Below are positions 3,478 through 63,759 of a DNA stretch of 64,000 nucleotides, one piece after another; position 1 is the stretch's first letter; each line of letters opens with the position of its first letter. Made by a program: the position numbers and the translations under genes. The notes below the pieces were generated by a model. The model searched no databases. It was not told the DNA's origin and saw nothing but the letters and a program-made list of their open reading frames with translations. The stretch is from positions 1,056,001 through 1,120,000 of the forward strand of contig CM000436.1 in assembly GCA_000165345.1 (NCBI GenBank). The letters are read 5' to 3'.

Positions 3478-4254
3478 GTGAAATTTTAAACAATTTTATT
3501 CTTATTATAATACTTTTCCAACTTAATTCATTCAATCAGATAAATCAATCATTTCATTCCTGTAATTAATTATTAATACTATATATATTCACTAAAACTG
3601 ATTAATTTTATTCTAAATCTAATATTTTCTTTTTCTTTCTGACTTATTTTAACTTCATTGTTTTGTAACTTCATTCCTAAATTTTCTCTTATTGGTATTA
3701 TTACTATTATCTTCCCACTTGCCGCCCATGCAGTTATTTTTCTTTTTTAATTCAATGTGGATAAAAATTACGTATACAACGGTAACCACGTAATTTTTAT
3801 AACATGTATATATGCATGCAATGCAAAAATGCATGGCAAGAGGGGGGAATGAGATGCCTGAAAAAATTAAAAGTGTGATTTTAAGGGGGGTGGAGAAGAA
3901 AAAATGATTAATTTGAGAAAATTTTATAAATGAAACGAAAGAATTAAAGAAAGTGAAAATAGAAGTCGAATTTAAAAGTAAAAAAAAAAAGTTGGTCAAT
4001 ACATGTGAATAAGTAAATATTTCAATTTATTACTGCGGTTATTGTCTAATAAGAAATTTTATTTGTATTAAACTTTCAACATAAAATAAAGTGGATATAT
4101 GCAAGTTGAAGAACAGAAAATAATAATATTACTTAAACAGAAAGAATTTTTCTAAAGTTAATTAATTTTTTAAAAAATCCATTCATAAACAAAGATTATC
4201 AAAATAAATTCTTAATTTATTAAAGTTCTTGTTTACGATAATCTAACATAAATA

Positions 4255-5801
4255 ATGTTTAGAGTAATGGATAGTCAAGTTTCAATCATAAGTTACCTTG
4301 GATTAACTCTAAATATATATATTACCATATTTGTTTCATTAATATGGGCATTATTTGTTCATGGAATGAAGTTATGGTTTGAAATACTATTTGGTGTTTG
4401 GATTTTACGTAGAATTTCCCCATTTTCAAAAATTCTTATTGAAAGATTATACAGATTATTAGGATTAGAGTCTGTTGTTTTAGAAAATAAGGATTTAAGG
4501 GGAACTGTATGTATTGTTACAGGTGGAGCAACAGGTATTGGAAAGAAAGTATCCGAGTTTTTTGTTAAATGTGGAGCAACCGTAATAATTGCAGATATAC
4601 AAGAAAATAAAGGCAGAGTTACAGCTTACAAGATTAATACAAATAACTCCTCTACAGGATTAGCAAGATATATGTATATTGATTTATCTGATGAAAAGTC
4701 CATTCGAAGTTTTGTTAAAAGATTTACATAGTAAGTTTTCAACTTGGATATATTAAGATAAATCCAAGAATGAATATAAATTGATTAAATTATTTATTAG
4801 TGATTATGACAGGCTCGATATTCTTGTAAATAATGCAGGAATTGGATCAGGATCAGGATATAGAAAAGAAGAATCAAATGATTTTGAAAAGTATATTAAT
4901 AAAGTATTTCAAGTTAACTATATAGGAACATTTATTTTAACAGAGTTATTATTACCCATTTTAAAAGTAAGTTTTGAGCAAGGCTTATTATCTCAACTAT
5001 CTGAGAAAATATATATATATGTATATATAATAACTTTTATTATTTGAACTTAGAATACAAAAAATTCAAGAATTGTAAATACATGCTCCCCATTACATAG
5101 ATTCTTTGGTTCTAATTTAAGAAAGATACTTGATTATTCACAAATTTTGGAGACTGATTATTCATATGGAGCATCTAAAGCAGCAATACTCCTTTATACA
5201 CTAAAATTAAGAAGGGATGCAATGGGTTTGACATTCTGTCAAACTTTTCAGACTGATAAAGTTGATGAAGGAGGAAATTATGACAATTTTCCTTGGTCAA
5301 CCTGCGTAAATCCTGGATCTGTAAATACTGGAATATTTCCAAAAGTATTTCCATATAGTTTAATATACTATTTTAAATGGTTCTTACTTGATACAAAAAT
5401 GGTGAGTTTAATTTTCATTCAAATATTTTCAATAATTAATTTTCATATTTTTTCTTATCATTTTTTGATAAAATAAAATTTCACCTTTTATTAATATTTA
5501 AAGGGGTCAGAAACTACCATTTTTGCTTCAATATGCCCTAAAGAGCAAGCAACTTTATATATGAGCCCATATTGGTTACCTGGAAATGGATCTTGGTTTA
5601 TAGATAGATTTGCTGATATATTAAGTAAGTATATTTCATAATTATACTCAACTTATTTATTTAATAATACTATCAGGTATATATGTTGGACCCCACTTCA
5701 CCGTCCCAGATCTAAATGATGATGCAGCTTTATCAGCAGAATATCTCTATGAGTGGACATACAACTATTGGAGAGCAAGTAAAACAAAGGAGGAAATTTA
5801 A
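4255..5801 (+). CDS. Short-chain dehydrogenase/reductase (SDR) with an N-terminal transmembrane segment; 5 exons: 4255-4730, 4801-4966, 5054-5401, 5498-5625, 5677-5801
   Basis: The three track ORFs (4255-4731, 4781-5047, 5147-5476) join through GTAAGT/GTGAGT donors and TAG/CAG/AAG acceptors. Splicing restores 'GIGKKV' (Rossmann fold), 'LDILVNNAGIG' (across intron 1) and the catalytic 'YSYGASKAA' motif (exon 3). All phases are consistent and the frame ends at TAA 5799-5801. Confidence 0.75.
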
Positions 5802-5971
5802 AAGATAATAAATATTAACAATATATGATATATTATATATATATGTATAGATATATTTATAAATATGCTATACATATACACAAATCTATGACTAAGTGAA
5901 TTGCCTAAGTTTAATAAAAAAAAAAAAAAGACGATACATATTCTCAATATTGTCTTTATTAAACGGATAGC

Positions 5972-6340
5972 TTACATTCTTATTCCTCCCCCAACTTGAG
6001 AAATCATTGCATCAATCAAATCTCCCTCCTGTAATCCAGCGTCTTCAGCTGTCATTTCTGGCCTTAAACGCTCACCTTCAAATAAGAAACGAATTGATTG
6101 TTCATTTTGGCCAGTTCTTTGACAGAAAGAATTCATCAATTTTTGTAAACGAGTTTTTTTCTTAATTCTATATAAAACTTGTTCCCCATCTGGACTTCTT
6201 ACCTTGACTGTTACATACTGACTATCATCAGAAGCTCCTCCTGTTCCTTGATCTATTACTGGCTTCTGCTCAATTTGATGTCCGTCATTACTCCCCTCGC
6301 CTGCACCCATACTACTATTATCTGTGAATCCTGGATCCAT
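5972..6340 (-). CDS. SUMO: SUMO/Smt3 ubiquitin-like modifier precursor (122 aa, ends ...QVGGGIRM)
   Basis: Ubiquitin-like fold signature 'VTVKVRSPDGEQVLYRIKKKTRLQKLMNSFCQRTGQ...IRFLFEGERL...DLIDAMISQVGG' with a di-Gly processing site followed by a 4-aa tail. Single exon. Confidence 0.9.
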   Translation of the reverse strand: MDPGFTDNSSMGAGEGSNDGHQIEQKPVIDQGTGGASDDSQYVTVKVRSPDGEQVLYRIKKKTRLQKLMNSFCQRTGQNEQSIRFLFEGERLRPEMTAEDAGLQEGDLIDAMISQVGGGIRM

Positions 6341-6768
6341 GTCTTTTTTTAAAAAAATAACTCAACACTTTTCCTAAATATCTATACTTCTCTCCCTTAT
6401 TATTACTATTACTATTGTTTTTCTCACTTTCACCTCCTGACCTTTCCCTAAATTCTTACTTCAATTCTTCTTCTCCACTAGTGTGGATTTTTAATATTAA
6501 TCATTCGAATTTGGCGCCTATACGTGTTTGGCGCCGCTGTGTTGCCGCCATTTGTATAATATATTTGTCGAAAATTTGTCAAAAGAAGAATGTATAGAGG
6601 AAAGTGGGAATATTTTCCGTAATTGAAGTTCACGAAGATGGATTTGAATTATTATTTAGCTCTTCAATATTGAAAAAGCGATTATTATTCTTTCTTGTTA
6701 ATTTCTTTTTCTTTTTTTCCAATTTTTGCCTTAAATATTAATACATGTTTAAGGAACTTACAATCCAA

Positions 6769-7839: not shown

Positions 7840-8394
7840 AATTACTTTAATTTCAAGATCTTTAGTCAAATCTAAGCTTATTCTTTGTTACCTCCCTTTT
7901 AATATATATATATATATCTATTTTTTAATATATTGAATATTGTGCAAAGTATTAAAAAAAAAAAAAAGAAAGAAGTCCTTATTCTAAACTTTTAAAAATC
8001 GAAATAAAAACTCAAAACCTCTTCCATTAATCACTAAACTTTTCCAATAGACTTAATATAGGAAATCCCATGAATTACTTCTTCAATGTTTTTCTTAATA
8101 CTAAGCGTTTAAAAAAGTTGGCGCCAAAAGTCAAATCAAGAATTTATTTTATATATTAAATAATAATTAAAAAGGTAATTTGAGGATTGAAATAAATATT
8201 AATAAATTGAGTTTTTTTTCTGCTTTTCAAGCAAAAGGGTATAGTTTTAGTAAATATTGTATATATTTTACTTTTGTTATTCCTTGAATTGTATGAACTA
8301 TTGCTTTCTAAAGAAAGCTTTAATAGGAAAATCAGGATCTGGGAAGGAATTGGGAAATATATAGAAATATTAAAACATAATTAAAAGTATTAAA

Positions 8395-10431
8395 ATGAAG
8401 GATTTATTAGATTCAGATGGAGAATCTGGAAATCTCCATGATACCAATACTTTAAAGATTAATGAAGATTACAAAAGAAAATATGATGAAAGAAAGAGAA
8501 AAGAAGCTTTATCAAAAGCAAAAGAACTATTAAAAAATGATAGAGAAGGAGAAGATGATGATGAGAGCTATTCTGAGTCAGATTCATCAGATGAAGATGA
8601 GGATTCTGATGCAGAACTTTTGGACTTAAAGACTCAAAATAAAATACTTGAAACTTTGGATAAAATAAAAAAGAAGGATCCTAGCATTTATGATAACTCG
8701 CATGTAATATTTCCAGATTCATCGGATGAATCTGATGATTCTAATGAATCTGATATAAAATCAAGTAATTCTAATACCCAAAAAAATAGTAAACCAATGA
8801 CTTTTAAAGATTACGAAAGAGAGATTTTATTAAAATCTCAAAATGATGAAGAAGATAATGAAATAGTTAAAAAAGGAATATCTAAGAAATTAGGTTATGA
8901 TAAGGAACAAGATGAGCTAAAGAAAGCATTTCTTAAAGCAGCAGAAGGATTAGATGAAAGTGAAGACGAGTTATTTTCTGGAACTCTGATTAAGAAAGAT
9001 AAAAGTAAGGAAGAGCTTGAAGAAGAAGAAAGAAATTTTAAATCATTCCTTACACGTAATATAGAGGAAGGAGGAGATCCAATAGAATCTTTAAATAGAT
9101 ATTGGGGTCCTGAGGAAGATTTGGATGAAAATGAAAAGTTTTTAAGAAATTATATATTAAATCAAGAATGGAAAGAATCCAATAGTCAGAAAAGAATTAA
9201 TGATGAAAACTCATCAAGTTATACAATTCAGACAGAAATGGACGAAGAAGAAGATGAGAAACATTTGGAATTATCAAATGAATTTGAAGGTATATATAAT
9301 TTTAGATACGAAGAACCAGGAGCTAACCAACAGATTATGGGATACTCTAGAGATATATCATCCCTAAGAAGGCCAGATGAACGTAGAAAACTGAAAAGAA
9401 AAGAAAAAAAAGAGAGAAAAGCTGAGGAAAAGCTTAGAATGGAGGAGGAATTAAAGGTTTTAAAGAGTATGAAGAGGAAGGAAATTATTGAAAAGCTTAA
9501 AAAGATTCAAGAAGTTTCAGGAATTAGCTGTATTTCAGATGAAAAGTTGGATTTGGAAGGAGATTTTGATCCTGATAAACATGATAAATATATGGAGGAG
9601 CTCTTTGATGATGATTATAATGAAAAGAAGGAAGATCTTTCATTATGTGAGATTTTGGAAAATAATGATGAAGGATTGAATGAATTAAGTGATGGGAATA
9701 TAAAAAATGAGAAAGAGGCCAAAAAACATAAAAAGAAGCTTTTAATGAAAGAAAACCAATTAAATGACGAATCAGAAATAAAACCACCATCTACTTATGA
9801 AGATGATGACTATGTATGGTGGCAATGTGATGGTTGTTTGAAAGAGATTCTTCCAAATAAGAAAAAATTTGATTGTAAAGTTTGTGAGAACTTTACTCTT
9901 TGTAAGTCTTGTTGTAGAAATACCAACCACGAGCATCCTCTTGAAAAGAGTCGTGTACCAGAGCCAATTAATAAAGAATTTAATGATAATGAAGAAGCGG
10001 AAATTGATGAAATGACCAGTTCTAACAGGCTGAATTTGAGATATGGAGACAATGAAAAGATTAATAGTTTGTTGGATGAATATTATAGTCTCCATTTTGA
10101 AGATGTTTTAGACAATGGTAAGATGCCAGTTAGATTTAAGTATACAAATGTCGAAAAGAATGACTATGGACTTAGTGTTGAAGATATTTTATCAATGGAT
10201 GATAAAGCATTGAATCAACATATTTCTTTAAAGAAGCTGGCTCCATATAGGGTTGATAAGAAGAGAAAGTATTCACCACCAGTAAATACTTCAAATGAAG
10301 CAAAATCTTCGAATAATATGAACAAGAAGCATCATAATAAGGGTAATAAATTCAAACGAAGTTATTCAAATAATAAGAATTCATTAAATACATCCCATAT
10401 TAATAAGCATCGTCTTGAATCTTACTATTAA
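8395..10431 (+). CDS. KRI1: KRI1-like ribosome-biogenesis protein (678 aa) carrying a Cys-rich ZZ-type zinc-finger-like insertion
   Basis: N-terminal 'LKINEDYKRKYDE', acidic Ser/Asp runs and 'LETLDKIKKKDPSIYD' resemble the KRI1 N-domain. C-terminal 'VRFKYTNVEKNDYGLSVEDILSMDDKALNQHISLKKLAPYR' resembles the Kri1 C-domain. 'WWQCDGCLKEI...CKVCENFTLCKSCC...HEHP' lies at aa 469-509. Confidence 0.7.
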   Translation: MKDLLDSDGESGNLHDTNTLKINEDYKRKYDERKRKEALSKAKELLKNDREGEDDDESYSESDSSDEDEDSDAELLDLKTQNKILETLDKIKKKDPSIYDNSHVIFPDSSDESDDSNESDIKSSNSNTQKNSKPMTFKDYEREILLKSQNDEEDNEIVKKGISKKLGYDKEQDELKKAFLKAAEGLDESEDELFSGTLIKKDKSKEELEEEERNFKSFLTRNIEEGGDPIESLNRYWGPEEDLDENEKFLRNYILNQEWKESNSQKRINDENSSSYTIQTEMDEEEDEKHLELSNEFEGIYNFRYEEPGANQQIMGYSRDISSLRRPDERRKLKRKEKKERKAEEKLRMEEELKVLKSMKRKEIIEKLKKIQEVSGISCISDEKLDLEGDFDPDKHDKYMEELFDDDYNEKKEDLSLCEILENNDEGLNELSDGNIKNEKEAKKHKKKLLMKENQLNDESEIKPPSTYEDDDYVWWQCDGCLKEILPNKKKFDCKVCENFTLCKSCCRNTNHEHPLEKSRVPEPINKEFNDNEEAEIDEMTSSNRLNLRYGDNEKINSLLDEYYSLHFEDVLDNGKMPVRFKYTNVEKNDYGLSVEDILSMDDKALNQHISLKKLAPYRVDKKRKYSPPVNTSNEAKSSNNMNKKHHNKGNKFKRSYSNNKNSLNTSHINKHRLESYY

Positions 10432-10657: not shown

Positions 10658-11740
10658 TTATACAACTTTTTCACCATTCACAGTAATTTGAGGATTAAAC
10701 CCAAGTGAATCTTTAACAACAACATGTTGGTTTCCTTTGGATTTCAACCAATTAACAACATTAGACTGTACATTTCCTGCCATTTGAATTTGTTTCCTTG
10801 CAATTTGTTCAATCCATCTTTAAATTTTAATAATTAGTAAGAAAATAAAATGATATAAACTTGAAATATAAATATACTACATATACTTACCTTAAATCTT
10901 TTGTAGTAAGTGCAGGTACTCCTAATGAAGAATCTGATAATCCAGTATTTTCTATAGTACCCATATTTTTTGAGAATGTAATTCCACTATTCTTGCAGAA
11001 TATCTGAGTAATTATCAAATAAGTTAATATGATAATTTTGTATAAATTTGAATTAATTCAAATAAATAAAAAAAACTTACAGCTTCTGTCAACTTATTCA
11101 TCATTTCGTTTCTCTCTTCGTCAGACTTTGCACACATAACTACAGGTGATCCATCGAAATACATTCTGAAACATTTTCTGCTATTTTGAACAGATTCCAA
11201 AGGAACCTCAATTTTATTAAGTGAGAAACTTCTTACAAGGCTTTCTGGATTTTTTAGGTCTGTCATAAATAATAAATCATCCTTAGTAATTTTTACTCCA
11301 AGAAGATCGACATCGAAAATATTTCTTGGATCCAAAGCTAAAGCTAATTCACCTGAAATCATTACAGAACAGACAGGATCTCTTGGTGAATCAACTACTG
11401 GCATACTAGTAACAACATCTCTTTGCTTTAATTTATTATTTGTAGCATCATTCATTGCTTTTTGGTAAACTGAAACAGCTGATGAAACTGCTTCACTATA
11501 AAGCTTTTCAGAATCTTTCTGGCTTATCTGGGATTTACCTTCCCCAATTACTGATACTGGTTCGACATTTGCACCGATTATTTTTCTTGCAGTTTGTATT
11601 AAAGTTGTGATTGTACCAGGTAAAAATTGTGGCTCTAATAAACCAAAATCTGATGTTGAACGGGTTAATCTTGCATGAGCATATTGGCTCAATCCTGCTA
11701 TTGATAGTAAATTAATCAAAAAGAAAATTCTCATTTTCAT
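10658..11740 (-). CDS. Secreted hypothetical protein, paralog A (signal peptide; 3 exons on minus strand: 11081-11740, 10891-11003, 10658-10817)
   Basis: N-terminal 'MKMRIFFLINLLSIAGLSQYAHA' is signal-peptide-like. Track ORF 11024-11740 reads through a GTAAGT donor at 11080; introns are 11004-11080 and 10818-10890. The spliced frame continues '...NKLTEA|IFCKNSGITF...KDLR|WIEQIARKQ...NGEKVV*' to a TAA at 10658-10660. About 18 of 50 residues match the product of gene 12398-13742. Confidence 0.65.
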
Positions 11741-12397
11741 TATTTCTTTTTTTTTCTAGATTAAACTATATCAAATACTCTCTTCTTTGATTAATAATTA
11801 ATTTTTTTTCTCTGTAGAATATTATTATTATTCTACAATTCCATCCGAATTAATTAATCACAATTTTTTTTTCTTTAGTTATGTGTTATTTTAATTAAAT
11901 TGCATTATAATTAATTTATCGACATTTTTTAATGATTTTTTGGTGCATGTAATTGATGACGTCATTTTTTTTTTTTAAATTGAATTACGTCATTTTATCC
12001 ACATAAATATATACCGGTATTACATACATGCAAAAAATTATTATTCATAATACAATTTTTGCGCATGCAAAAAAAAAATGCAAGTTTGCTAATTTAGTCC
12101 ACATGAAATTGCATGCAAGTTTTTTAAGCTTAAAGAGATAAATAGAAAGAATTAAAAAAAAAATAATTGTTTTTGCATGTATATGCAAAGCCGGTATTCA
12201 ATAAAAGTCAGAAAATGAAAATTCATGCATAAATACATGTAAAAAAAAAATACATTTATGCATACAAGAAAGGAGTAATTCGTGATAATCTAAATTAAAT
12301 CAAAACAAGGGTATTTTCAAAATAATCTTCTTGTTATTTAATATTTAAAAAAATTATCAAATAAATAAAAAAGGTATTTAATTTTGAAAGAAGAATT

Positions 12398-16689: not shown

Positions 16690-17313
16690 GTCTCCAGTAT
16701 ATTAATATTTACTAAGGGGAGAAAAAAAAATGGAATTTTACATCACTTTAAATTCCTATCTTTATTTTTATTATCCAGATCTCTTTTTATTTAGGCCAAG
16801 TCCTTCGCTTTCTCCTACCTTTTCCTTCCTTTTATCTCTTCTCCTTCCTTTTTATTCAACAAATCTCATTTCTTCAATATTACGCTGATCTCAACCTTTT
16901 TGGCGCCAATAACTTATGTCATAATTTACTTGCCAACTTTAATCAATTCAAAATTCTTCTGAATTTATTGCTTTGAAAAATTATTAGTAAATACTCTTCT
17001 AACCTAAACATTTATTGTTGAAAACTTCTTGCTATCTCCCACTAACACTTCTATCTTACTTTCTCTCATTCGTTTTCTACATACTCATTTTCCTAGACTT
17101 GAAATTTTAAGATACAAATTTAGGCGGGAATTCTTCTTATTAACTACTTGTCAAAAGTTCAACAGTGAAGAAGAGTAAAATTTTAAGGGAGAAGGAGAGA
17201 AAAGGATTAAGTTTTAAATTTAGGAAGGCTAATATAGTCCAAAGACTTGATATCTAATCTAAAATCCCCTTTTTTTTACATACTAAAAGGTTAAAGATTG
17301 ATTCTTTTCATTT

Positions 17314-21021: not shown

Positions 21022-21079
<58 letters not shown>

Positions 21080-22818: not shown

Positions 22819-22831
22819 TTTGGGCGCCAAC
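22819..22831. promoter_or_regulatory. E2F-like site TTTGGGCGCCAAC in the RPS15A / NOP14-like divergent intergenic region, with a CCCGCC element at 22916-22923
   Basis: Direct reading. Same motif class as 6509-6554, 8117-8130, 16897-16910, 40917-40930 and 55331-55356. Confidence 0.4.
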
Positions 22832-26194: not shown

Positions 26195-26840
26195 TTTTCT
26201 ATATTAGTATATATACTTTTTTCGTCATATATATGATTTTTGTTTTTAACTTAATTAACTTATATGTTTACGCTTTATTCTTTTTATTTCAAAGTGAAAT
26301 TTTATGATTTATGTCCAAATTCCTTTCTTTTTTTTTATCCACATTTCAAATTATTAATCAATTATTTAATTACTGGTTGCATGCATGCACGTATTCATTT
26401 TTGCAATTCTTACTACACCGGTATATAAGCAATTGATTTATGTAATTAATGTGGACATTACGTGTCTATTAATAATTACCGGTATACAGTTTAAAGAAAA
26501 AAAAAATGTAAATAGCAAATTGCGGGAAAAAAAATCATTGCAATTATTAAATAATATACAATTATGCAGGAAAATTGAAGGAATTAACAAAACTTCTAAA
26601 ACAATTATATTGCTTTTAATGCTGGTATATGAAGATCAAAAAAACGATTAATTATTATTTTCTTTTATCGTTTACTCTGGAATAGAGATAAGTTGATTAA
26701 CTTCAAGTATTTAAAAATAAATTGTGATAAATTTTAATAGAAATATTATTATTGAAGAAGATTTAATCAATTTAAGTTAATTTATGATTTACAAAGTTTT
26801 TTTAAAATACTGAGGTAATAATTCAGATGAATAAAAAACA

Positions 26841-28951: not shown

Positions 28952-30241
28952 TTTTCTTTGCTTTAAATATATTAACGATTAAGTTTATTCTAATATAGTT
29001 GAATCAGCAGATGATATATGCTTATATACTGCTTTCTTTTGAGTCTTTTAACTAGTAATAATCTTCCTTTAAGAAGCTTAATTAGCTAATATTATCAGCT
29101 CGAAATTAATTCAAATATTATGTACACTCGTACAAATTTAATTTAATGTTTATTAACTGATTGACTACTCTCTAGTTATCTACTTTTTATCTTGAGTTAT
29201 TTTTTCATGCATGCAATTGCCTGTGGCTTGCTTGCATTATTATTTCAATAATAAAATTTTTATTATTATTTTTTTTATGTGGATAATTTGCATACATGCA
29301 TGCAAACTTGCATTCACAAAAATGTCAGTTTTTCTATACCGGTATGCACAAATTTTTATTATTAATTTTTTTGTCCACATTCATACACATGTAATAATAA
29401 AATTAAACTGATAAAAGCAGAAAAATTTAATATGATTTATGAAATTAAAAAAAAATTTGTTTATGTGGGAAAATATTGGAAAAATAGAAAGATCATATAT
29501 TATTGGATTGAATTAAAATTGATAAAACCATAATTTTTAAGATAAGAAATCATTTTTTTTTAATGGTAAATTGCGATTCGTGGTTTTTGAATTTAAACAA
29601 TACCTAAAAGCTAAAGAAGAAAGAAAGTATATAATAAATATATCTTAAATTATTATAAACAGAATATTATCTCTTATTTTGCAATAATAAGTTTGATAAA
29701 ATAATTTATTTGATAATGTTTTATTATTAACGCAAAGTTAAATAATAATTATAATAATTAATTTAATGGAAAAGAAAGCATTTATTAATGTGGATAAAAT
29801 GATACAATATAATTAATCTGCAAACTTATTTCGTCGAATTAAATTGAATTCAAGTTAATTAAATATTATTAAATTATATGTCATTCTTTAAAGTTTTAAA
29901 AATTGGTTAATTTTTTTTTCCCTAAATATCATGTAAATGGGCAAGATGTTGGACAAGGCGGTAATATTTAATTAATTGATAATCGAATACAAGCTAATAA
30001 TCAAACATAAGAAAAAAAAAATTCTTCTAAAAATAAGAATTAAGAATATAACTTTGTATATTCCAATATAATAAGAATTAGCTTTTAGAGAATTATAAGC
30101 AAAGTTAACTGATGAAATTTGGTGGTTCCAAATTTACTTAGAAAGCTAAAATTATTCCAAATTAAAGAAGAATACAAGAAATTTCTGTAAGAGAAAAAGG
30201 CACACAATAACAAGCATATAAATAAAAATATATCTTTCATT

Positions 30242-33456: not shown

Positions 33457-33480
33457 GTTCCCGCCAAAAGTGCCCGCCAC
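33457..33480. promoter_or_regulatory. Tandem E2F-like sites GTTCCCGCCAAAAG and TGCCCGCCAC in the divergent promoter between 31488-33134(-) and 33849-36977(+)
   Basis: 'ttcccgccaaaa' reverse-complements to TTTTGGCGGGAA, a canonical E2F consensus, and is immediately followed by a second CCCGCC. Confidence 0.45.
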
Positions 33481-33848: not shown

Positions 33849-36800
33849 ATGTTGAATTCTGTGGATGTTGATAAATCAGGTAGATTTGGAATATTTAGTA
33901 GGAAGGATGTTTATATATATAATTTAGATAGATGGAAAGATAGAATAGATGATGGGCTAGAATTTATTAAGGTAGATAAAGGAAAGAAGATAGGATTAAA
34001 GAAGTCTACAGAAGCAAGTAGTAACCTTAATTCAATTTTTATGGATGAATATGACCATAATAGTTCTAAGTATCCTGAAATAGTAAAATTTGGAACTCAT
34101 CCAAGTATGTATGGGAATTTCATAAATATTCAAGGGAATTTAATACTATATGGAAGTTTGGAAACTATTGGACTGGATTGTATTTCAACTCAGATGATGA
34201 ATATCAGTTCTTTTGACTGGAGTCCTCATTTTTCAACAGGTACTTTTGTAACAAGTTGTGAGGATGCGTTAATAAGAGTCTCAGATATAAGGAGTAAAAG
34301 TCTAGACTTATCATTCATGTCGTTCTATAATACAAATTGCATTAAATGGAATCCTTTAAATTCTTATTTAATAGGAGCTTTACATGAAAATGGAGAATTT
34401 TTAAGTATTTATGATCTTAGAGTTTTAAAGTCTACTGGTATAATATCTAGAAATCAGTGGCTAAATGATAATTTGAAAAGAAAGGAGAGAGAGACAAGAG
34501 GTAGAGAAAAGGGTAATACCGAATTTACATGGTTACCATTATCATCAGATAAAGTTTTGATTTCCGAAACAGATTATTTATGTATAATTGATTTTAAAAT
34601 AGCTATTGAAAGCTCTAATACAGCTTATAATAGTATTGCAGATTGTAATAATAATTTAAGAGTTAGAAATGGAGCACAATATATATCATTAACAAATCCT
34701 AATATTTCTCCAGATTTTGAAATACTCAACTTTTCATCAAGTTCGGTTGAAGAGGATGATGAACTAGGAGAGGATGAAGGTAATAGCTTAATGAATCAAG
34801 GTCATACTCAAGTTGATACAGAAATGGATATTCAGGATTTAAACTGGAAGAATAGAACAAATATAAAGGTTAATACATTTGATTTTTTACCAGGAACAAA
34901 TGATCTAATAATTAATGATAAAAATGGAAGATTCTACTTTAGTGAAATCAAATATAGCGATGATTTGGAACTTAAAAAGCTTAAATTAAAATATAGTGGG
35001 CCAGTAAAGAGAATTTTTTCAAGAGAAAATAATGGACTAACAGTTTTTGGAGGATTAAAAGCAGCAAGTCACTCAAGTATTAGTTATTTTGAAAGTGAAG
35101 AAAAAAATATAAAATATGATTTTTATGCAACTTCTTTACCACAAATAAATAATAAAAGAAATACTACAGAAGATGAAAAATACAAAATGTCAAACTTGAC
35201 ACTTCAAAGCTTCTGTTTGGACTGGTTTTATAGAGATTTGAATATGATCTATGAAAAAGTAAAGTTAAACCAACAAATGGCAAATAATCTAATATCAATT
35301 TCTATTGAGTCAAACGAAAGGATTATAGCAAAACTTTCAAGACATCCATCATTACGTGGGAAATTTGTAATGGAAGATAATACAAATCTTAATTTAGTTA
35401 TTGATTCTTTTGAATTTACAATAATTTTAACAACACAAAAAAATAATATTAAAGCTACTTATTATTTCACTAATAATACAATTCTCTTAATTAAAGAGAT
35501 TTTTTCATATCTTTCTATTATTGAAAAATCAGAATTAAATATTAATTCATGTGGACAAGAATTTAAAAAATTACAAAATTATGACTACACGTCACTAAAT
35601 TATTTGCATGTAAAAGAAAAAAATTACATGCAAAATTTAATACCGGTAAGAGTTTATGTGGATAATATAATATTGAATGGTAAAGAGAGAGAGAAATTGT
35701 GTGAATTATTTAGAATAGAACTTGATAAGGAATTATTAATATCATTATTTAATGAAACAGTGATAAGTAATAAAGCTCAAGTATCAAAGCAATTAATAGA
35801 TTGGGTATGGATTATTTCTAGTTTACCAGAATTAATATTTGGATTATTAATTCAAAATGATGGATCAAAAAAAGAACAACAATTAGAGTTAATATCATCA
35901 ACTAGAAAGCATGTATATGGGATAGGATTTGAACAACATGCAATAGTTGGTGAAAATTATGAGAAAAAAGCAAGAATTTCATTTACATTTAATACATTAG
36001 ATAAATTGATCATATCTCAAGGAAATTATTTAGTAGTAATGAAAGTGAATAATGAGGATGATTGGAATAGAGCTACAAGGTATGAGAATATATTGATTGA
36101 GATTAATGAAATGTTAAGAAAAGTGGAATATATTTCAGAGGAAAGGTTCTTATATGGAGATTATTTTAAATATGCATATGTACTATTTAGTTGGCTAACA
36201 AGAGTTTTATATAAGCAAAATAGAAGACGTAGTGTCAAGGATATACAGAATTTTAGTATAGATCCAACCAATATTGAAGAAAATTCAAATTTGAGTATGA
36301 TGTTATGTCCGACAGTTGTTCACTCATATTTTAAGAATAAAAGTGATGCTAATACATCTAGAAGACAGTTTGACCATATAATTGATTCTGTTACTCCTAT
36401 CACATACAAGTTTAATTTAACTTGTTCTAGTTCATCATGTTTTGATCAGATTGATAAAACAAAGCTTTTTATTTTACTAAAGAAATTATATTTGGAAATT
36501 AAAAATAATTATGATGCTAGAATTTTGGTGGTGGCTATTCAAAAGCTTTCAAATCATATAAAGAGAACCGAAGATTGGTATAAGTTAAAAAATGATTCAA
36601 AAATGGGATTAGGAAATCGATTAGAAGGAATGGGAGCAAATGAACTCATTTCAGAGTTGGAGTTGAATCCAGTATCATTATCTGAAATACAAAGAGGAGG
36701 AATAATATCAGATAATAATGGTTCAATTTTAGCTCATTCTGTTTCACCTTTTCCCTTGGATTTGACTTTATATTCAGAATATAAATCTACTCAAGTACTG

Positions 36801-37969: not shown

Positions 37970-38095
37970 TTTTCCTTCTCTATCTCCACTTTAACAATTT
38001 AGGACTTGTTTTATTATTCAATTTTTAATAAATTTTTCCCTTGATAGTTTACTATTTATTAATTATTTAAGACATAAGTCCTTATTTCCCGCCAA

Positions 38096-38110
38096 AACCA
38101 AATTTTTTTT
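38096..38110 (-). promoter_or_regulatory. E2F-like site TTTCCCGCCAAAACC about 130 bp upstream of the eIF2-beta ATG
   Basis: Direct reading of 38096-38110. Confidence 0.4.
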
Positions 38111-38736: not shown

Positions 38737-39123
38737 CTTTTTGCTCCCGCCAATTTATTTTCCATTAATATTTTTTCAAAGTGGTCATTGAATACATACG
38801 AAAATAAGTTAATATTAGAAAATAATGAAATGTTATTTGCCATTAAATTAAAATATTAAATTATTAATTCGACGATTACAATTTATTTCAAGCAACTAAT
38901 TACATATAAATATATTGTGTATAAACTAAATTGTTGAAAAGAAGAAGAAATTGTCTTTAAAATAATATTCTCTCCACTTAAGAATTTTCCTTTTCTTTTA
39001 TTTGCTCTTAATTAAATTAAATGATATGGTTTAAAAGTTGTTATTGTAAAATTTGAAATGATTTTAATAAAAGAAAAAGCATTTCACTTTTAAATCTTTT
39101 TTAGATATTGAAATCCAAATAGC

Positions 39124-40916: not shown

Positions 40917-41002
40917 TAGGCGCCAACCCTACTTTTTTTTTTTTTCCTCTTACGTGGCACCGGTATTTTAGAAAACAATTAATAATTTACATGCATGTAA
41001 GC
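40917..41002. promoter_or_regulatory. Upstream motif block for gene 39124-40878: TTTAGGCGCCAACC (E2F-like), ACGTGGCACCGGTAT and CATGCATGTAAGC
   Basis: Direct reading. It combines both motif vocabularies seen elsewhere in the window. Confidence 0.4.
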
Positions 41003-44007: not shown

Positions 44008-44096
44008 ATTTGGCGCCTAGTACACGTCATGTGGGGAGAAACCGGTACTATGCACAAGCATGCATATAGATTGAAATTTGGGCGGGTATTGAACAA
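44008..44096. promoter_or_regulatory. Composite motif cluster: ATTTGGCGCC, CACGTCA, ACCGGTACT, GCATGCAT, TTTGGGCGGG
   Basis: Direct reading of 44008-44096, inside the 1.6 kb intergenic region upstream of CNOT9. A second cluster 'CCGGCGCCAAATG...TTGGCGGTAAA' lies at 44922-44947. Confidence 0.4.
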
Positions 44097-44528: not shown

Positions 44529-44566
<38 letters not shown>

Positions 44567-45197
44567 CTCAAATTTAATAAATCTGTTAATTTTGAATATA
44601 AAATTTGCAAGTTAAGTGTTTAGCTGAGCGTACGAATATTTTATAATTTTGAAGATTACGCTTGAAGAAAATTGAAATATATAAAGGGAGAGAAAAGGAA
44701 AGCATTGGGGAGAAAAAAAAAAAAAAGACCGAATGCTAAGATAAAAAACAGTTTTGAAATAAAATTCTAAGAATATCCGTAAATGCCTTCAATATATTTA
44801 TTAAAGATATGTGCAATTGGATAAGCCATTAACTTGCATAATTTTTTATTTGAAATTTATTCCAAAAGTGACGGCAATAGTATTGAAGATAGGTGGGGAC
44901 TCAAGTAGACAAACAAAATGTCCGGCGCCAAATGTGTTGGCGGTAAACCGAGTTGTCAAATTTAATTTGGAAATTGAATGAAATAAAAGAAGCAAGGAAT
45001 TAAAATAAAACAGAATTAAAAAAAGGTTTTAAGTTAATGGATTTTTAAAATCGAAGAAATGAAAAGCCATTGAACGAGTTTATATAGAATCCAAATACAT
45101 TGTGCAGTTCTCTTTTTTGTTTTTTTCTTTTTTATCTTATATTAAAATAAAGTTAATCAAAGTAGAATTTTAATTTTTGGGAATCAATAAATAAGAA

Positions 45198-46757: not shown

Positions 46758-46790
46758 TGGCGCCTTATTTGCCCGCCAAACAGCGGGAAC
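46758..46790. promoter_or_regulatory. E2F-like cluster ATGGCGCC...TTTGCCCGCCAAACAGCGGGAAC upstream of Sec24
   Basis: Direct reading of 46758-46790. Confidence 0.4.
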
Positions 46791-50048: not shown

Positions 50049-50086
50049 TTTCCCGCCCATTCGTGTAAAATTTGACTTGCATGCAT
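50049..50086. promoter_or_regulatory. TTTCCCGCCC (E2F-like) plus TTGCATGCATAC upstream of gene 50380
   Basis: Direct reading. Confidence 0.35.
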
Positions 50087-55116: not shown

Positions 55117-55305
55117 TTAATTAACTTATTATTTCTCATTATTTAATTATTCGAGTATCTACTTACTTAAAAATACAAAAAGTTTCAAGATAAAAAAGCC
55201 AATTTCTAATTATAAAGCTAGAAATAAATACTAAATAATAATTCCTTATTTATTTATTTATTTTTAACAGGTATTATATTTATCATTATTAATATTATTA
55301 TTTTT

Positions 55306-55356
55306 GCATGCACATTATCAAATATTTGAACTGGCGCCACTCTTTGGCGCCAACCG
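55306..55356. promoter_or_regulatory. TTGCATGCAC followed by CTGGCGCCAC and TTTGGCGCCAACC upstream of PI4K
   Basis: Direct reading. Confidence 0.4.
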
Positions 55357-59290: not shown

Positions 59291-59333
59291 TTATCCACAT
59301 GACGTCATTTTTATTGCATGCATGCAGTGGCGC
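59291..59333. other. Promoter-like composite motif TTATCCACATGACGTCATTTTTATTGCATGCATGCAGTGGCGC sitting between two convergent 3' ends
   Basis: The same module (TTATCCACA + (T)GACGTCA + ATGCATGCA) appears in the divergent promoter 11741-12397 and around 26334-26488 and 29277-29380. Here the neighbouring genes end at 59147 and 59525, so neither can use it as a 5' promoter. Confidence 0.4.
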
Positions 59334-59524
59334 AAATGATAACAATAATTTGACACGTAATTATATTTATTAAATGTTAAATAACAGACATTACAAAACA
59401 CGGAATGAAAAGAAATTAAAAAAAAAATCATTAATATCCAATGCTAGTACTATCTATATTAGATACAAAACATGCAACCTATCCAATTAATTGTGAAACT
59501 AATTTGTGAGCAAAAACGAACCCT

Positions 59525-62500: not shown

Positions 62501-62761
62501 ATTGGCATCGTAATGGCATCTATGTATTAAATCAGAAATCTCATTTAGATTGAAGTTATATGGTTCTAATACAGGGGTCAATTCTCTGACCCACTTTGCA
62601 GTTCTTGGAGACATGGGAGTATCAACAATAGCTGGTTGAACATTTATTCTTCTATAATAGTCCTCATTTATTGTAGAATTTGGCTCCTTAGAATTAGACT
62701 TGTTATTTCCTGCAATAGCAGAATTCTTATTAGCTCTCAAATTTCTTGCTCGAGCTGACAT
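59525..62761 (-). CDS. Large low-complexity protein (1078 aa) rich in N/Q/G/S with a His-Gly repeat block and a poly-Ala run; a short structured N-terminal region
   Basis: Continuous 3.2 kb ORF. N-terminal 100 aa 'LNEISDLIHRCHYDANQIELAVGNVIEDF' looks like a small helical (UBA/CUE-like?) module. 'HGHGHNHNHNHGHSHGHGHGHGQGHVQGHSHGHGQRHGHGHGHGH' is encoded at 62030-62160 and 'AAAAAAAAAAA' at about 60660-60700. The many track ORFs inside it on both strands are artifacts. Confidence 0.55.
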   Translation of the reverse strand: MSARARNLRANKNSAIAGNNKSNSKEPNSTINEDYYRRINVQPAIVDTPMSPRTAKWVRELTPVLEPYNFNLNEISDLIHRCHYDANQIELAVGNVIEDFSGHESGQWTKVGKNRTNGGLKQNNTNSTNVNNNNVNRNKNSNNTNSIKSGKQTHSQNNQSQIQNQSQSQNQNQSQNQSQNHVEGTNTNYNKSNNKSIKHNVHGHGHNHNHNHGHSHGHGHGHGQGHVQGHSHGHGQRHGHGHGHGHTQTQNQNHSHQARTTGDQSIQQESNNASKVATTIGSNPVVTHVSATKASISNNPVDNTTTWANLARKNNNKDIGSTLEKSQTTNSNNKDHKNSSNDTITKEKLSQDHSASTRQHQEQENTQETSSLISKPFEKTIKEQIVSSNFVNDNTQSSSPSTSNIYSPNSMTGSGITAIDLGIKVGGISPPHGIQIGGGIDYKSHGIGVFLPEGRTIDPNANDGLLFGSFGAVDISKIPENQVQINNSIVSDNNSNSVQNQSSGVSTNSSYTAGGGHTGNIGASNVGAMSVVTGISENTSGIGGAGVTGSHLLNGWNTSGSSPSKDGSTSGMVVDQGLLHQNASQRNSGSGVSSGGSGVSGSNVHTSIKSSGIGNGYMGHSISGSAINNYNNLPIAGQGMVGSGSVYSSNPTLLSGNSGMNYNETVVGGSTGSNGGNSGSASNGNNSNMALAAAAAAAAAAANPYNYAYLNYAGYTANFPYMVGNTAAFGFPHYNTKPNGHHHPTPVFNQYSQGPNPSQHGLNGVYGIGGGAGGSGNTAVNNNTSGNVMVSDGIGVNYHSSNNQSPITMGGNSAHNHHMSSQNPSSYQNIQSILPPGMSHQQMGIGSQQPNGSGNSLQNQMNLPMGFNNNGGSNEFGVDQTIPQAVFLGQPSTTNNNKLDNIGAHPGDFIHHQSYGNHHGHIQNPTSNANINSQGNPNTGNPNSHSKGNSQSAASNFQGNIQYIGKPAGSGSSNTGSGTPNGTSGNSAPGNPSGAVNGATVGSGMDLAHQGQGVGGNSSSGNSSMFLPGRAQNTAGQAGQVGSAQSKQTSVNFPGFHSSRTGSNSGFLQHNNNMWNNN

Positions 62762-63325
62762 TATAAAGTATTATATAATAATTTATAAGTAGAATAGGTT
62801 GTTATGTGTTTAGATATCTTATTATTAAGCAAAAACAAGCAGTTGGATTAATTAAAATTGCCAATAATGTTTGTTTCTGCTCTTAACTGCTCCAAGTAAT
62901 TTTTGACTACACTCTCACTTTAAAAACTTTAAAGTGAGACCGTGCTTTATGAAACGGAGAGTCTCTAGTTACTTGTTCTGCTTTTCTGTGTACTTTTTTT
63001 TTTAGTATAAGAAAAAATAAATCACATATATTTCTTATGTAATAAATTAATTTTATTCCTACTTCCCACAATACTTTAATTTCTCTCCAACCCTATTTTT
63101 CCTCTAGTCTTAATTTATTAATAATATAGCTAATATTATACATTACATTATAATAAATAATTATTATTAATAGACCTATATATATTTAATTATTTACCTT
63201 TTATTATTATTATTATTATTATTACTATTCAAATTATTTATTTGAAGTCAAACTTAGCTTTTTCCATATATTATATTTAAAATTGTCTAAACTCGGCCGC
63301 CTCTTAATATTTTCTAATTTTAAAA

Positions 63326-63440
63326 TTACCGCCAAAAATTAACAAACTCTTTAATCATTCTATTCTTTCAACATTTTCCCGCTCAAAATAGTCGAATTGT
63401 TAAATTTTACAAAAAAAAATGCATGTTTTCCCGCCGTCTC
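63326..63440. promoter_or_regulatory. E2F-like series (TTACCGCCAAAAA; TTTTCCCGCTC; TGCATGTTTTCCCGCCGTC) in the divergent region between 59525-62761(-) and the gene starting at 63760(+)
   Basis: Direct reading. AGCCGGTATAGG and CATGTATGCATG follow at 63622-63653. Confidence 0.4.
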
Positions 63441-63759
63441 AAAAGATTACTTTAATATGAAATTTAATGAAAAATGATGAAAAGTCAAAATAATGAGCGA
63501 TTAACAATAAATAAAAATTGAGAATGGAACAGAATAAATATTTAAAAATATTTAGTTTTCTTTTTGAAGAAATTTCTTAGTTTTTTTTTTTCAAAAATTA
63601 TATTTGTCTGTTTTGTTTTAAAGCCGGTATAGGAATACATGTATGCATGTAATTGAATAGATTTGTGTGTATTTGCATTTGAGTAATTATTTTTCTAAAT
63701 TCATTGAATATTTTTGTGAATATTTTTAATTAAAAAATTCTTAAATACTTTATTGGAAA

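Follow-up and report, generated by a model that had tools for sequence, protein, structure and literature searches.

Two promoter vocabularies on chromosome 8 of Cryptosporidium parvum, one probably marking female-gamete genes

The window analysed here, a 64,000-nucleotide stretch of C. parvum Iowa II chromosome 8 with genes cgd8_4240 to cgd8_4520, probably uses two transcriptional promoter vocabularies, a proliferative and housekeeping class A and a class B that would serve as a cis-regulatory module of the female gamete. Class A is the published E2F/DP site and is already known. We think it likely that class B marks female-gamete (macrogamont) promoters; the case for this specificity draws on the window with its orthologous regions and on a single published female set, for which shuffles, and not non-female promoters, were the reference. 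The presence of the motifs, their excess over chance, clustering, conservation across the genus and recurrence in independent female promoters were observed directly; the female specificity of adjacent genes comes from published data.

Motif counts and the E2F/DP class

The initial annotation had described two motif vocabularies in the intergenic DNA, and this description holds, as does its placing of the DNA in Cryptosporidium. The motifs occur 8 to 80 times more often than in dinucleotide-preserving shuffles of the window, which served as the null, and although coding DNA makes up two thirds of the window, almost all matches are non-coding. We counted ACCGGTAT 8 times (0.23 expected), TTATCCACA 7 times (0.83), TGCATGCA 10 times (0.53), TTGGCGCC 14 times (0.18) and TGACGTCA 3 times (0.13), and no shuffle matched any of these observed counts. 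Every site listed in the annotation carries its motif in place or within about 10 nt, the shifted one being 38096-38110, which is really TTTCCCGCCAAAA at 38085-38097. On the spacer map of the window, E2F-like sites occupy 17 of 20 promoter-bearing spacers, and 8 of 9 convergent (3'-3') spacers have none of the motifs. The GC-rich islands had been read as E2F-like sites before housekeeping genes, correctly so: they match the published sites DTTGSCGCCH and TTTGGCGGGAAV (PMC3734150) and precede housekeeping and growth genes. The class-A sites, with no strand assigned, are:

6511..6549, two copies of TTTGGCGCC followed by GCCGCCA, all E2F-like sites, upstream of SUMO (cgd8_4260)
8118..8127, the palindrome TTGGCGCCAA between the divergent methyltransferase and KRI1 genes
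16900..17130, TTGGCGCCAA (16900) and TTTAGGCGGGAA (17119) between the divergent fibrillarin and USP genes
22821..22831, TGGGCGCCAA in the RPS15A / NOP14 divergent spacer
33458..33480, TTCCCGCCAAAA and GCCCGCCA in the cgd8_4410 / cgd8_4420 divergent spacer
38085..38097, TTTCCCGCCAAAA upstream of eIF2-beta
44924..44947, CGGCGCCAAA and TTGGCGGTAAA upstream of Rcd1 (cgd8_4460)
46759..46790, TGGCGCC, TTTGCCCGCCAAA and GCGGGAA upstream of Sec24
63426..63440, composite TTTTCCCGCCGTCTC, an E2F site fused to a GAGAC-type motif

C. ubiquitum and C. bovis also have E2F sites upstream of SUMO; these two species and C. felis share one E2F site of the methyltransferase / KRI1 spacer, and TTTGGCGGGAA upstream of eIF2-beta is kept in all three and in C. 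canis. The RPS15A / NOP14 site, which the ribosomal-protein motif AGAGACGCC (22793) adjoins, is conserved in 6 of 6 other species examined. In the cgd8_4410 / cgd8_4420 spacer, C. ubiquitum and C. canis match every motif column (100% identity), and the composite TTTTCCCGCCGTCTC has an identical string in C. canis and a near-identical one in C. felis. Class A, the E2F/DP site, probably drives a proliferative and housekeeping programme. Expression was taken as female-vs-asexual log2 fold changes (Tandel 2019 data, from the tables of Hasan 2024), which are -1.28 (asexual) for fibrillarin and -2.3 for RPL7.

Class-B modules in the window

As we picture it, a class-B module would combine at least one copy of the ApiAP2 site TGCATGCA, clustered within tens of bp, with two further elements. 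One is the palindrome (A)TACCGGTA(T), whose symmetry suggests a dimeric putative factor; the other is the asymmetric CATGTGGA(C/T)A(A), which on the opposite strand reads TTATCCACATG and which mostly points toward the gene. CCGGTA, TGTGGA[C/T] and TGCATG fall within 150 bp of one another in five clusters in the window (at 12012, 12191, 26418, 29337 and 35641), compared with 0.02 in shuffles. The co-occurrence reported in the initial annotation is real, and it takes the form of clustering, not of a fixed arrangement: spacing is flexible, as it would be in a 'billboard' module. The class-B and mixed sites are:

11944..12230, no strand, full module in the divergent promoter common to cgd8_4290 (-) and cgd8_4300/4310 (+)
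29206..29380, minus strand, full module 255-430 bp upstream of cgd8_4390 (ATG 28951, minus strand)
26335..26485, plus strand, module in the interval from the NOP14 3' end to the SNW1 ATG (26841)
35547..35667, plus strand, module inside the coding sequence of cgd8_4420 (MIO/GATOR2-like WD40-RING protein)
44041..44066, no strand, partial module (ACCGGTAC and GCATGCAT) in the cgd8_4450 (-) / Rcd1 (+) divergent spacer
40958..41002, minus strand, partial module (CACCGGTAT and CATGCATG) upstream of cgd8_4440 (acyltransferase)
59291..59361, no strand, module of TTATCCACATGACGTCA, TGCATGCATGCA, TGGCGC and GACACGTAAT in the convergent (3'-3') spacer of PI4K and cgd8_4510
63622..63650, plus strand, GCCGGTATAGG and TGCATG 110-140 bp upstream of the ATG at 63760
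3756..3838, plus strand, TGTGGATAA (3756) and ATGCATGCAATGCAAAAATGCATGG upstream of cgd8_4250 (short-chain dehydrogenase)
55305..55353, no strand, mixed promoter with TGCATGCA (55305), TGGCGCCA and TTGGCGCCAA upstream of PI4K

Full modules flank cgd8_4290/4300/4310 and cgd8_4390, genes whose published expression is 240 to 1200 times higher in females. The most complete modules belong to genes that are all but silent in asexual stages and very strongly expressed in females; the full modules of the window lie 75-430 bp from the ATG. The first module reads TGCATG, TGACGTCA, ACGTCA, TTATCCACAT (11994) and ATACCGGTAT (12011), followed by several GCATGCA, GTCCACATG (12097), TGCATGCA (12110) and GCCGGTAT (12189). 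Element order is identical in C. ubiquitum, most elements are present in C. felis and C. bovis, and C. muris keeps GTACCGGCAT and TGCATGCATGCA. The genes on either side, cgd8_4290 (log2 fold change 9.8) and cgd8_4300/4310 (7.9 and 9.1), are a paralog pair of PH-domain proteins; cgd8_4290 is reported to belong to the crystalloid body and to depend on AP2-F (PMC12246861, PMC10233709).

The second full module reads, in gene orientation, ATGTGGAC, ATACCGGTAT, TGCATGCATG, TTATCCACAT and then GCCACAGGCAATTGCATGCATG; its blocks are kept in C. ubiquitum, C. felis, C. canis and partly C. bovis, with spacers of varying length. Expression of cgd8_4390 rises from a log2 value of about 1 in asexual stages to about 11 in females, and with a log2 fold change of 10.2 the gene is among the most female-specific in the genome. 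TFIIS, which had been named as the target, lies about 900 bp from this module, as against 255-430 bp for the cgd8_4390 ATG, and has a log2 fold change of 2.2. SNW1, another proposed target, is absent from the female-vs-asexual differential list despite its complete, conserved upstream module (TTATCCACAT, TGCATGCATGCA, ACCGGTAT, ATGTGGAC, ACCGGTAT). In C. ubiquitum and C. canis, that module keeps ATACCGG together with TGCATGCA; C. felis and C. bovis share its ATACCGG. In C. andersoni, this position carries an E2F site instead. The contrast once drawn between housekeeping genes and secreted paralogs, SNW1 and TFIIS is better replaced by one between a proliferative and a female-gamete programme.

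Across about 45 kb of genic sequence, CCGGTA occurs once, in the module inside cgd8_4420 (CATGTGGAC, ACGTCA, TGCATG, CATGCA, ATACCGGTA, ATGTGGATAA); it is read there as ATA-CCG-GTA (Ile-Pro-Val) although CCG makes up only 3.6% of Pro codons. C. ubiquitum and C. canis share this module; at the equivalent position, C. felis and C. bovis have TGCATGCA. The PI4K / cgd8_4510 spacer is the one motif-bearing spacer among the nine convergent ones, with counterparts in C. canis (GTCCACATGACGT, TGCATG, GACACGTAAT) and C. felis (GTCCACAT, TGCATGCA, TTACGTGT). The ATG at 63760 belongs, by gene numbering, to the next gene, cgd8_4520 (log2 fold change 1.66), and the orthologous site in C. canis carries TACCGGTAT, TGCATG, TGCATGTGGAC and ACGTCA.

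Partial modules adjoin E2F sites upstream of cgd8_4450 (E2F site at 44010; log2 fold change 4.7) and cgd8_4440 (40919). Neither cgd8_4440 nor cgd8_4250 is on the sex-differential list, and the region upstream of the latter has no CCGGTA. Both motif classes stand together at 40917-41002, 44008-44066, 50049-50085, 55305-55356 and 63326-63653; the two vocabularies are not exclusive but are combined in several promoters.

Independent promoters and conservation across the genus

Our independent set comprised 62 macrogamont promoters (PMC11078545, file S6; sequences truncated to about 388 nt), with the window's own genes taken out. Ranked against 200 dinucleotide shuffles, the leading de novo 7-mers were ATACCGG/CCGGTAT (15 sequences, 0.30 expected), GCATGCA (33, 1.8 expected) and TGTGGAC (12, 0.46 expected). 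CCGGTA and TGTGGA[C/T] occur together in 11 promoters, alone in 7 and 5 and not at all in 39 (odds ratio 12.3, p=1.4e-4), at a median nearest distance of 23 bp compared with 83 bp for random placement (p=0.005). ACCGGTAT and TTATCCACA are genuine partners. A like architecture is found at COWP8 (cgd6_200), CCp2 (cgd7_300), NEK5 (cgd7_5050), cgd3_1540, cgd6_3280, cgd6_4880, cgd7_5130 and cgd8_920. Since CCGGTA is present in only 18 of the 62 promoters at this length, the module marks a subset of female genes, not all; E2F sites occur in 21. The third proposed partner, TGACGTCA, is absent from all 62 female promoters and is a local conserved element, not a general class-B partner.

Of 22 TGTGGA[C/T] copies, 17 face the gene (p=0.017). 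This 17:5 sense bias, together with the translational repression reported in female Cryptosporidium (PMC11078545), would suit elements acting in RNA, within 5' UTRs of maternal mRNAs (for example in storage or translational repression), rather than as promoter sites in DNA. We consider that most improbable. Of the three elements, two are perfectly palindromic, all are found in both orientations, and one module is common to a divergent gene pair. Annotated 5' UTRs were trimmed from the S6 promoters (methods of PMC11078545), which places the motifs upstream of annotated transcript starts, at about 40-210 bp from the annotated 5' end in complete promoters of the set. UTRs in this genome are short, and modules of the window lie as far as about 430 bp from the ATG.

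In class-B spacers GCATGC, CCGGTA and TGTGGAY are kept in C. ubiquitum, C. felis, C. canis and C. bovis and in part in C. andersoni and C. muris. Orthologous E2F-only spacers remain E2F-only, and orthologous convergent spacers remain empty. Motif columns are better conserved than other spacer columns in C. ubiquitum (0.87 vs 0.65, p=8e-11), C. felis (0.60 vs 0.41, p=4e-7) and C. canis (0.66 vs 0.50, p=2e-4). Identical short words at many loci might also be left by a dispersed repeat or mobile element, arise from base composition, or be chromatin landmarks such as dispersed CENH3 sites on the reportedly holocentric chromosomes. We give these readings almost no credence: similarity does not extend outside the 8-11 nt cores, order and spacing differ among loci, cores are kept across species while the spacers between them diverged, the five composite clusters far exceed the shuffles, and published CENH3 sites carry GA-rich motifs, unlike class B (PMC12621844).

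Candidate regulators and previously described motifs

We favor a mechanism in which the two partner elements would be bound by separate putative factors that cooperate with AP2 proteins to turn on late female genes. The initial annotation had named AP2-like motifs as previously reported, and TGCATGCA is indeed a known, published AP2 site; protein-binding microarray (PBM) assays attribute sites of the TGCATGCA type to cgd2_3490 and AP2-F/cgd4_1110, two factors expressed in females. It is possible, though rather unlikely, that the partners are extended or secondary sites of these same proteins, or sites of ApiAP2 proteins without a PBM motif, which is lacking for several C. parvum AP2 domains. 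TGTGGA often overlaps the TGCAT core, as in TGCATGTGGAC, and a published DREME motif, TGCATG(T/C)(G/A), merges TGCATGCA with TGCATGTG (PMC11078545). However, CCGGTAT has no core in common with TGCAT and stands apart as a block of its own, with the nearest GCATGC 11-89 bp away, and many TGTGGA[C/T] copies are preceded by T/A-ATG or CAATG, not GCATG. The main text of the PBM study contains neither partner motif, and there is no match among the primary motifs tabulated for 18 AP2 proteins. If separate factors are involved, the conserved module of TGCATGCA and two partners at female-gamete genes may point to new regulators of female development.

The partner motifs ATACCGGTAT and CATGTGGAYA are apparently undescribed, with the TGTGGA core glimpsed twice before. 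For CCGGTAT / ACCGGTAT we found no description in the searchable literature, in agreement with the initial annotation. Its similar claim for TTATCCACAT stands in part, as that element is not wholly undescribed: read in reverse complement, it fits the 'unknown motif' A[T/A]G[T/A]GGA.A upstream of class II oocyst-wall genes (PMC3734150), and it overlaps the published TGCATG(T/C)(G/A) (PMC11078545).

Gene content and E2F/DP-type sites

Exact protein matches assign the window to chromosome 8 of Cryptosporidium parvum Iowa II. It is gene-dense, with a G+C content of 29%, and holds approximately 27 protein genes from cgd8_4240 (SF3b130/CPSF_A-like) to cgd8_4510, as well as the 5′ end of cgd8_4520, a name assigned by gene numbering. 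The map also includes the following features.

15016-15289, minus strand, U3 snoRNA (Rfam RF01848, 126 bits), between cgd8_4320 and fibrillarin
38664-38737, plus strand, tRNA-Ala(AGC), between eIF2-beta and acyltransferase
48045-48105, canonical GTAAGT...TTGCAG intron that splits the Sec24 ORF
12398-13700, cgd8_4300 and cgd8_4310, a single 353-aa PH-domain gene in newer annotations

Newer annotations lengthen cgd8_4290 to 310 aa. The initial annotation had divided the intergenic motifs into an E2F-like class and a second class, here class A and class B. The words it named are present at all of the sites it listed, one of them ~10 nt off; at eIF2-beta it had the motif right and the position wrong, TTTCCCGCCAAAA actually lying at 38085-38097. 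Motif matches fall nearly all in non-coding DNA, with coding sequence making up two thirds of the window, and their counts are compared below with dinucleotide-preserving shuffles. A spacer-by-spacer map finds none of the motifs in eight of the nine convergent (3′-3′) spacers, and E2F and class-B elements mixed in several promoters.

Motif counts in the window and the numbers expected from shuffles
ACCGGTAT, 8 found, 0.23 expected
TTATCCACA, 7 found, 0.83 expected
TGCATGCA, 10 found, 0.53 expected
TTGGCGCC, 14 found, 0.18 expected
TGACGTCA, 3 found, 0.13 expected

Class A fits the consensus TTTSSCGC, all 12 occurrences of which are non-coding, or the palindromic TGGCGCCA. E2F-like sites occur in 17/20 promoter-bearing spacers, and as many as six further species have them in the orthologous spacer, namely C. 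ubiquitum, C. bovis, C. felis and C. canis, and in part C. andersoni and C. muris. The E2F motifs published for C. parvum, DTTGSCGCCH and TTTGGCGGGAAV (Oberstaller 2013, PMC3734150), have been described as its most abundant promoter motif and as the dominant one of sporozoite open chromatin (Xiao 2025, bioRxiv 10.1101/2025.01.17.633476), and two E2F and two DP proteins are reported to be encoded (PMC12246861). Class A agrees with the published consensus, and its sites are frequently doubled or palindromic. They stand in nearly every promoter-bearing spacer and precede ribosome-biogenesis, translation and trafficking genes, and we see no difference from the published motifs. The genes behind class A show asexual or proliferative behavior in expression data. 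Female versus asexual log2 fold changes are -1.28 for fibrillarin and -2.3 for RPL7, and when female differentiation is blocked, ribosomal-protein and translation-factor genes go up, including RPS15A and eIF2-beta of the window. The proposal that an E2F-like class precedes housekeeping genes thus agrees with both the published motifs and the expression of these genes. Class A sites are putative E2F/DP binding sites of an already published kind and add nothing new; E2F and TGCATGCA are the textbook motifs of C. parvum.

A third vocabulary, the ribosomal-protein motif (A/T/C)GAGAC(A/G), adjoins E2F sites upstream of RPL7 and RPS15A (21293 and 22793). Upstream of cgd8_4510, the spacer contains TTTTCCCGCCGTCTC, a composite site at 63426-63440, and at 62931-62968 two GAGAC words in inverted orientation, AAAGTGAGACCG...CGGAGAGTCTC. 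C. canis conserves both, and C. felis matches them more loosely.

A composite module recurring in promoters of female-gamete genes

Class B is a module of TGCATGCA, the AP2_1 site, with two partners, the palindromic CCGGTAT and the TGTGGAY element (CATGTGGAYA). All ten TGCATGCA matches in the window are non-coding. The boxes fit BGCATGCAH, which is enriched upstream of genes, and sites of this type are bound by cgd2_3490 in PBM assays (PMC4117751); the reported site of AP2-F (cgd4_1110) is AP2_1-like (PMC12246861). A further GCATGC at 38698 is invariant in all species and was ruled out as a promoter site, as it falls within the tRNA-Ala gene. CCGGTA, TGTGGA[C/T] and TGCATG meet within 150 bp in five clusters against 0.02 in shuffles. 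The co-occurrence noticed at the outset is therefore above chance, and an artefact of base composition is disfavored by the same comparison. A dispersed repeat or mobile element was rejected: repeat searches within each module region gave nothing beyond brief chance or A/T-run matches, the cores vary from locus to locus in number, order and spacing, and across species the cores are conserved and the spacers divergent.

Female versus asexual fold changes were taken from the supplementary tables of PMC11078545 and PMC6877471.

Female versus asexual log2 fold changes in the window
cgd8_4290, 9.8
cgd8_4300, 7.9
cgd8_4310, 9.1
cgd8_4390, 10.2 (expression ~1 in asexual, ~11 in female)
cgd8_4450, 4.7
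TFIIS (cgd8_4400), 2.2
cgd8_4420, 1.6
cgd8_4520, 1.7

With values of 7.9-10.2 for cgd8_4290, cgd8_4300, cgd8_4310 and cgd8_4390, complete modules flank top-ranked female-specific genes. cgd8_4450 is also female-specific, and female bias is weak for TFIIS, cgd8_4420 and cgd8_4520. The PH-domain paralogues cgd8_4290 and cgd8_4300/4310 (28% identity) have a divergent promoter in common; cgd8_4290 is listed among the crystalloid-body genes under the female factor AP2-F (review PMC12246861; Tandel 2023, PMC10233709), and cgd8_4290 and cgd8_4300 belong to the published 65 co-regulated macrogamont genes (PMC11078545). Placement of the second class before a paralog pair was thus borne out, and the pair is female-specific. 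SNW1, also named as a target, does have a complete, conserved module upstream, but is missing from the sex-differential list, as are cgd8_4440 and cgd8_4250, which have partial modules. The module attributed to TFIIS was misassigned: it lies 255-430 bp from the cgd8_4390 ATG and ~900 bp from TFIIS.

KRI1 (cgd8_4280, 8395-10431) is listed as "female specific" with a log2 fold change of 4.0, despite its E2F-only promoter, and is up when female differentiation is inhibited. Its signal could come from read run-over of the convergent, very highly expressed cgd8_4290 (11024-11740).

Recurrence elsewhere in the genome was assessed in file S6 of PMC11078545, which holds promoter sequences of the 65 macrogamont genes with annotated 5′ UTRs trimmed. 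Leaving out two window genes and one gene without sequence gave 62 independent promoters (21.5 kb, up to ~388 nt analyzed for each), whose 7-mers were ranked without bias against 200 shuffles. ATACCGG/CCGGTAT ranked first (15 sequences, 0.30 expected), GCATGCA second (33 sequences, 1.8 expected) and TGTGGAC third (12 sequences, 0.46 expected); among 8-mers, TGTGGACA (11 sequences, 0.13 expected) and TACCGGTA (6 sequences, 0.05 expected) came after TGCATGCA. GCATGC is present in 33/62 promoters against 2.6 expected, CCGGTA in 18/62 and TGTGGA[C/T] in 16/62, the last two together in 11/62 (odds ratio 12.3, p=1.4e-4). TGTGGA[C/T] tends to accompany GCATGC (odds ratio 5.6) and to be missing where E2F sites occur (odds ratio 0.2). 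Enrichment in the female set was measured against shuffles, and CCGGTA density is 0.84 per kb there, 0.20 in the window's other non-coding DNA and 0.022 in coding DNA. An element acting at the RNA level is disfavored, given the trimming of annotated 5′ UTRs from these promoters.

The median distance between CCGGTA and TGTGGA[C/T] is 23 bp, compared with 83 bp for random placement (p=0.005), and spacing runs from 8 to 60 bp; of the fixed co-occurrence first proposed, the clustering stands and the fixed arrangement does not. The CCGGTAT element has the consensus wATACCGGTATw, with full palindromes in 8/18, and the TGTGGA element has the consensus CATGTGGA[C/T]A[A] and is gene-facing in 17/22 cases (p=0.017). 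In complete promoters of the set, the elements lie ~40-210 bp from the 3′ end. The architecture of the cgd8_4390 promoter is repeated almost element for element at COWP8 (cgd6_200), and with small variations at cgd3_1540, cgd6_3280, cgd6_4880, cgd7_5130, cgd8_920 and cgd1_990, as well as at two AP2-F-dependent genes, CCp2 (cgd7_300) and NEK5 (cgd7_5050). At CCp1 (cgd7_1730), ATACCGGTG adjoins TGCATGCA without TGTGGAY.

The CRE/bZIP-type palindromic octamer TGACGTCA, which had been counted among the partners, is not class-wide, with matches in 0/62 independent female promoters (ACGTCA in 4/62). C. ubiquitum and C. felis both retain the copy at 11957, and C. canis retains the one at 59300 as TGACGT; TGACGTCA is a locally conserved element. 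ACACGTA/TACGTGT is over-represented in the female promoters (7 sequences, 0.59 expected) and also occurs at 59352, and G-box words (GTGGGGA) are likewise enriched in the 62. Both may be further module components.

Conservation across the genus and copies outside canonical promoters

Orthologous regions were compared from C. ubiquitum, C. bovis, C. andersoni, C. felis, C. canis and C. muris. In the intestinal species, GCATGC, CCGGTA and TGTGGAY are all retained in each of the class-B spacers, which number three (4290/4310, NOP14/SNW1 and 4390/TFIIS). Spacers with E2F sites alone remain so, and convergent spacers remain empty. In C. ubiquitum the order of about ten elements in the 4290/4310 promoter is unchanged. 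Alignment of the cgd8_4390 promoter gives conserved blocks TGCATGTGGACAAAA, CATACCGGTATA, TTGCATGCATG, TTATCCACATAAAA and GCCACAGGCAATTGCATGCATG separated by spacers of variable length. Column conservation of motifs versus the rest of the spacers is 0.87 versus 0.65 in C. ubiquitum, 0.60 versus 0.41 in C. felis and 0.66 versus 0.50 in C. canis (p values between 2e-4 and 8e-11). For C. bovis, which diverges too far for columns to be scored in a global pairwise alignment, retention was judged by motif counts. A paralogue search with the PH-domain pair for other crystalloid-body loci returned orthologues only, which were used for footprinting.

Two other blocks were observed in the cgd8_4390 promoter. 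C. ubiquitum and C. canis share the one beside the proximal TGCATGCATG (29206-29229), which reads AAGCCACAGGCAATTGCATGCATG in the direction of the gene, and a CTGACA/TTGTCA block is likewise conserved.

In the gastric species C. andersoni and C. muris, the spacers are much shorter and only parts of the modules are left. Upstream of SNW1 in C. andersoni (region L005, 11977), the E2F site TTGGCGCC replaces the class-B module of the intestinal species, and the 215-bp 4290/4310 spacer of C. muris (region L014, 9786-10000) is left with only GTACCGGCAT and TGCATGCATGCA. Such differences look like turnover of promoters among Cryptosporidium species.

Class-B modules also occur at two places outside canonical promoters.

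35547-35667, complete, in the coding sequence of cgd8_4420 (MIO/GATOR2-like WD40-RING protein): CATGTGGAC, ACGTCA, TGCATG, CATGCA, ATACCGGTA, ATGTGGATAA
59291-59361, in the PI4K/cgd8_4510 3′-3′ spacer: TTATCCACATGACGTCA, TGCATGCATGCA, TGGCGC, GACACGTAAT

The cgd8_4420 module contains the sole CCGGTA among ~45 kb of genic sequence. There, ATA-CCG-GTA encodes Ile-Pro-Val; CCG makes up 3.6% of proline codons, the triplet has a chance expectation of 0.004, and C. ubiquitum and C. canis retain it. At the same place, TGCATGCA-type words stand in C. felis and C. bovis, and the surrounding protein stretch is poorly conserved. A rare codon, together with words retained in a poorly conserved stretch, points to constraint at the DNA level, and on the likeliest reading the module would act as an enhancer or as a female-type promoter, internal or antisense.

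The PI4K/cgd8_4510 spacer is the only motif-bearing one among the nine convergent spacers, and C. canis and C. felis (regions L015 and L016) conserve its module. Antisense lncRNAs of C. parvum typically start at 3′ ends, with E2F or AP2_1 motifs upstream (PMC7840661), which makes an lncRNA promoter plausible here; an antisense transcript, or one missing from the annotation, may be driven by the module. The polycistron preprint does not mention the genes of the intragenic and convergent-spacer modules. These copies suggest that the compact genome may hide stage-specific transcription starts inside or between genes.

A candidate female-gamete module and its relation to known systems

Judged by its recurrence and retention, class B is a real, conserved module, predicted to act in female-gamete promoters and recurring elsewhere in the genome. 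The overall initial interpretation was partly right: its E2F half was known, and its second class corresponds to this candidate female-gamete module. Leaning somewhat against it ourselves, we tentatively speculate that ATACCGGTAT and CATGTGGA(C/T)A bind one or two new female-lineage transcription factors, which would cooperate with AP2-F and cgd2_3490 to define a class of genes off in asexual stages and very high in females (crystalloid-body proteins, several oocyst-wall proteins and meiotic kinases). The same speculation extends to the two copies outside canonical promoters: the one in MIO/cgd8_4420 would be under synonymous-codon constraint, and both it and the 3′-3′ spacer copy would give rise to internal or antisense transcripts specific to females.

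Cryptosporidium cannot be transmitted without sexual development, and according to a 2026 review (PMC13657310) no trigger of female commitment is known. Published analyses of female-gene promoters ended at the TGCAT-type AP2 motif; ours adds two short conserved partner elements that mark the most strictly female promoters. These elements (ATACCGGTAT, CATGTGGACA) can serve as baits in DNA-affinity purification or DAP-seq and as defined targets when promoters are mutated, and they supply a sequence rule with which to predict late-female genes and design female-specific reporters.

The macrogamont promoter motif found by DREME is TGCATG(T/C)(G/A) (Hasan 2024, PMC11078545). The TGCATGCA boxes of class B are the same site as this published AP2_1/macrogamont motif, and ATGTGGATAA also overlaps it; where the published analyses report the TGCAT-type motif only, here it forms part of a larger module, also conserved, to which CCGGTAT and CATGTGGAYA belong. 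Both partners had initially been taken as undescribed, which, within the literature searched, holds for CCGGTAT but not for TTATCCACAT. Ahead of the four genes for class II oocyst-wall proteins, Oberstaller 2013 (PMC3734150) noted an "unknown motif", A[T/A]G[T/A]GGA.A, and ATGTGGATAA, the reverse complement of TTATCCACAT, matches it. That report covers the four genes only, without a partner, conservation data or a female link, whereas the TGTGGA element here occurs in 16/62 independent female promoters, mostly gene-facing and paired with CCGGTAT. CCGGTAT is not one of the 25 motifs that PMC3734150 lists, it appears neither in the AP2 PBM study (PMC4117751, main text) nor in the AP2 motif table of PMC12246861, and it was not found in Mullapudi 2007 or by full-text literature searches; Mullapudi 2007 and the PBM main text contain none of the words ACCGGTAT, CCGGTA and TGTGGA. 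Full-text searches returned only primer or construct sequences for ACCGGTAT, and only primers for CCGGTA or TGTGGA with "Cryptosporidium" and "motif". As far as the literature search reached, the two partner elements are essentially undescribed.

Two systems outside promoters were rejected. Published CENH3/holocentromere sites carry GA-rich motifs (PMC12621844), unlike the module. The bacterial DnaA box is the identical 9-mer TTATCCACA, a match that we regard as coincidence: the chromosome is that of a eukaryote, the setting is one of promoters and not of a replication origin, and the conserved core is TCCACAT(G), with GTCCACAT a commoner variant than the DnaA-box 9-mer.

Plasmodium female and transmission-stage elements follow the same logic as class B, with stage-specific promoters made from short AP2-type elements. 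The ten-base motif of Plasmodium AP2-FG is TGTRNNYACA, and to our knowledge CCGGTAT and CATGTGGAYA match no Plasmodium motif. The AP2-Sp/PF14_0633 site TGCATGCA is common to Apicomplexa (PMC3734150). The likeness to Plasmodium is one of promoter logic and of the shared TGCATGCA, and does not imply orthology of the trans-acting factors.
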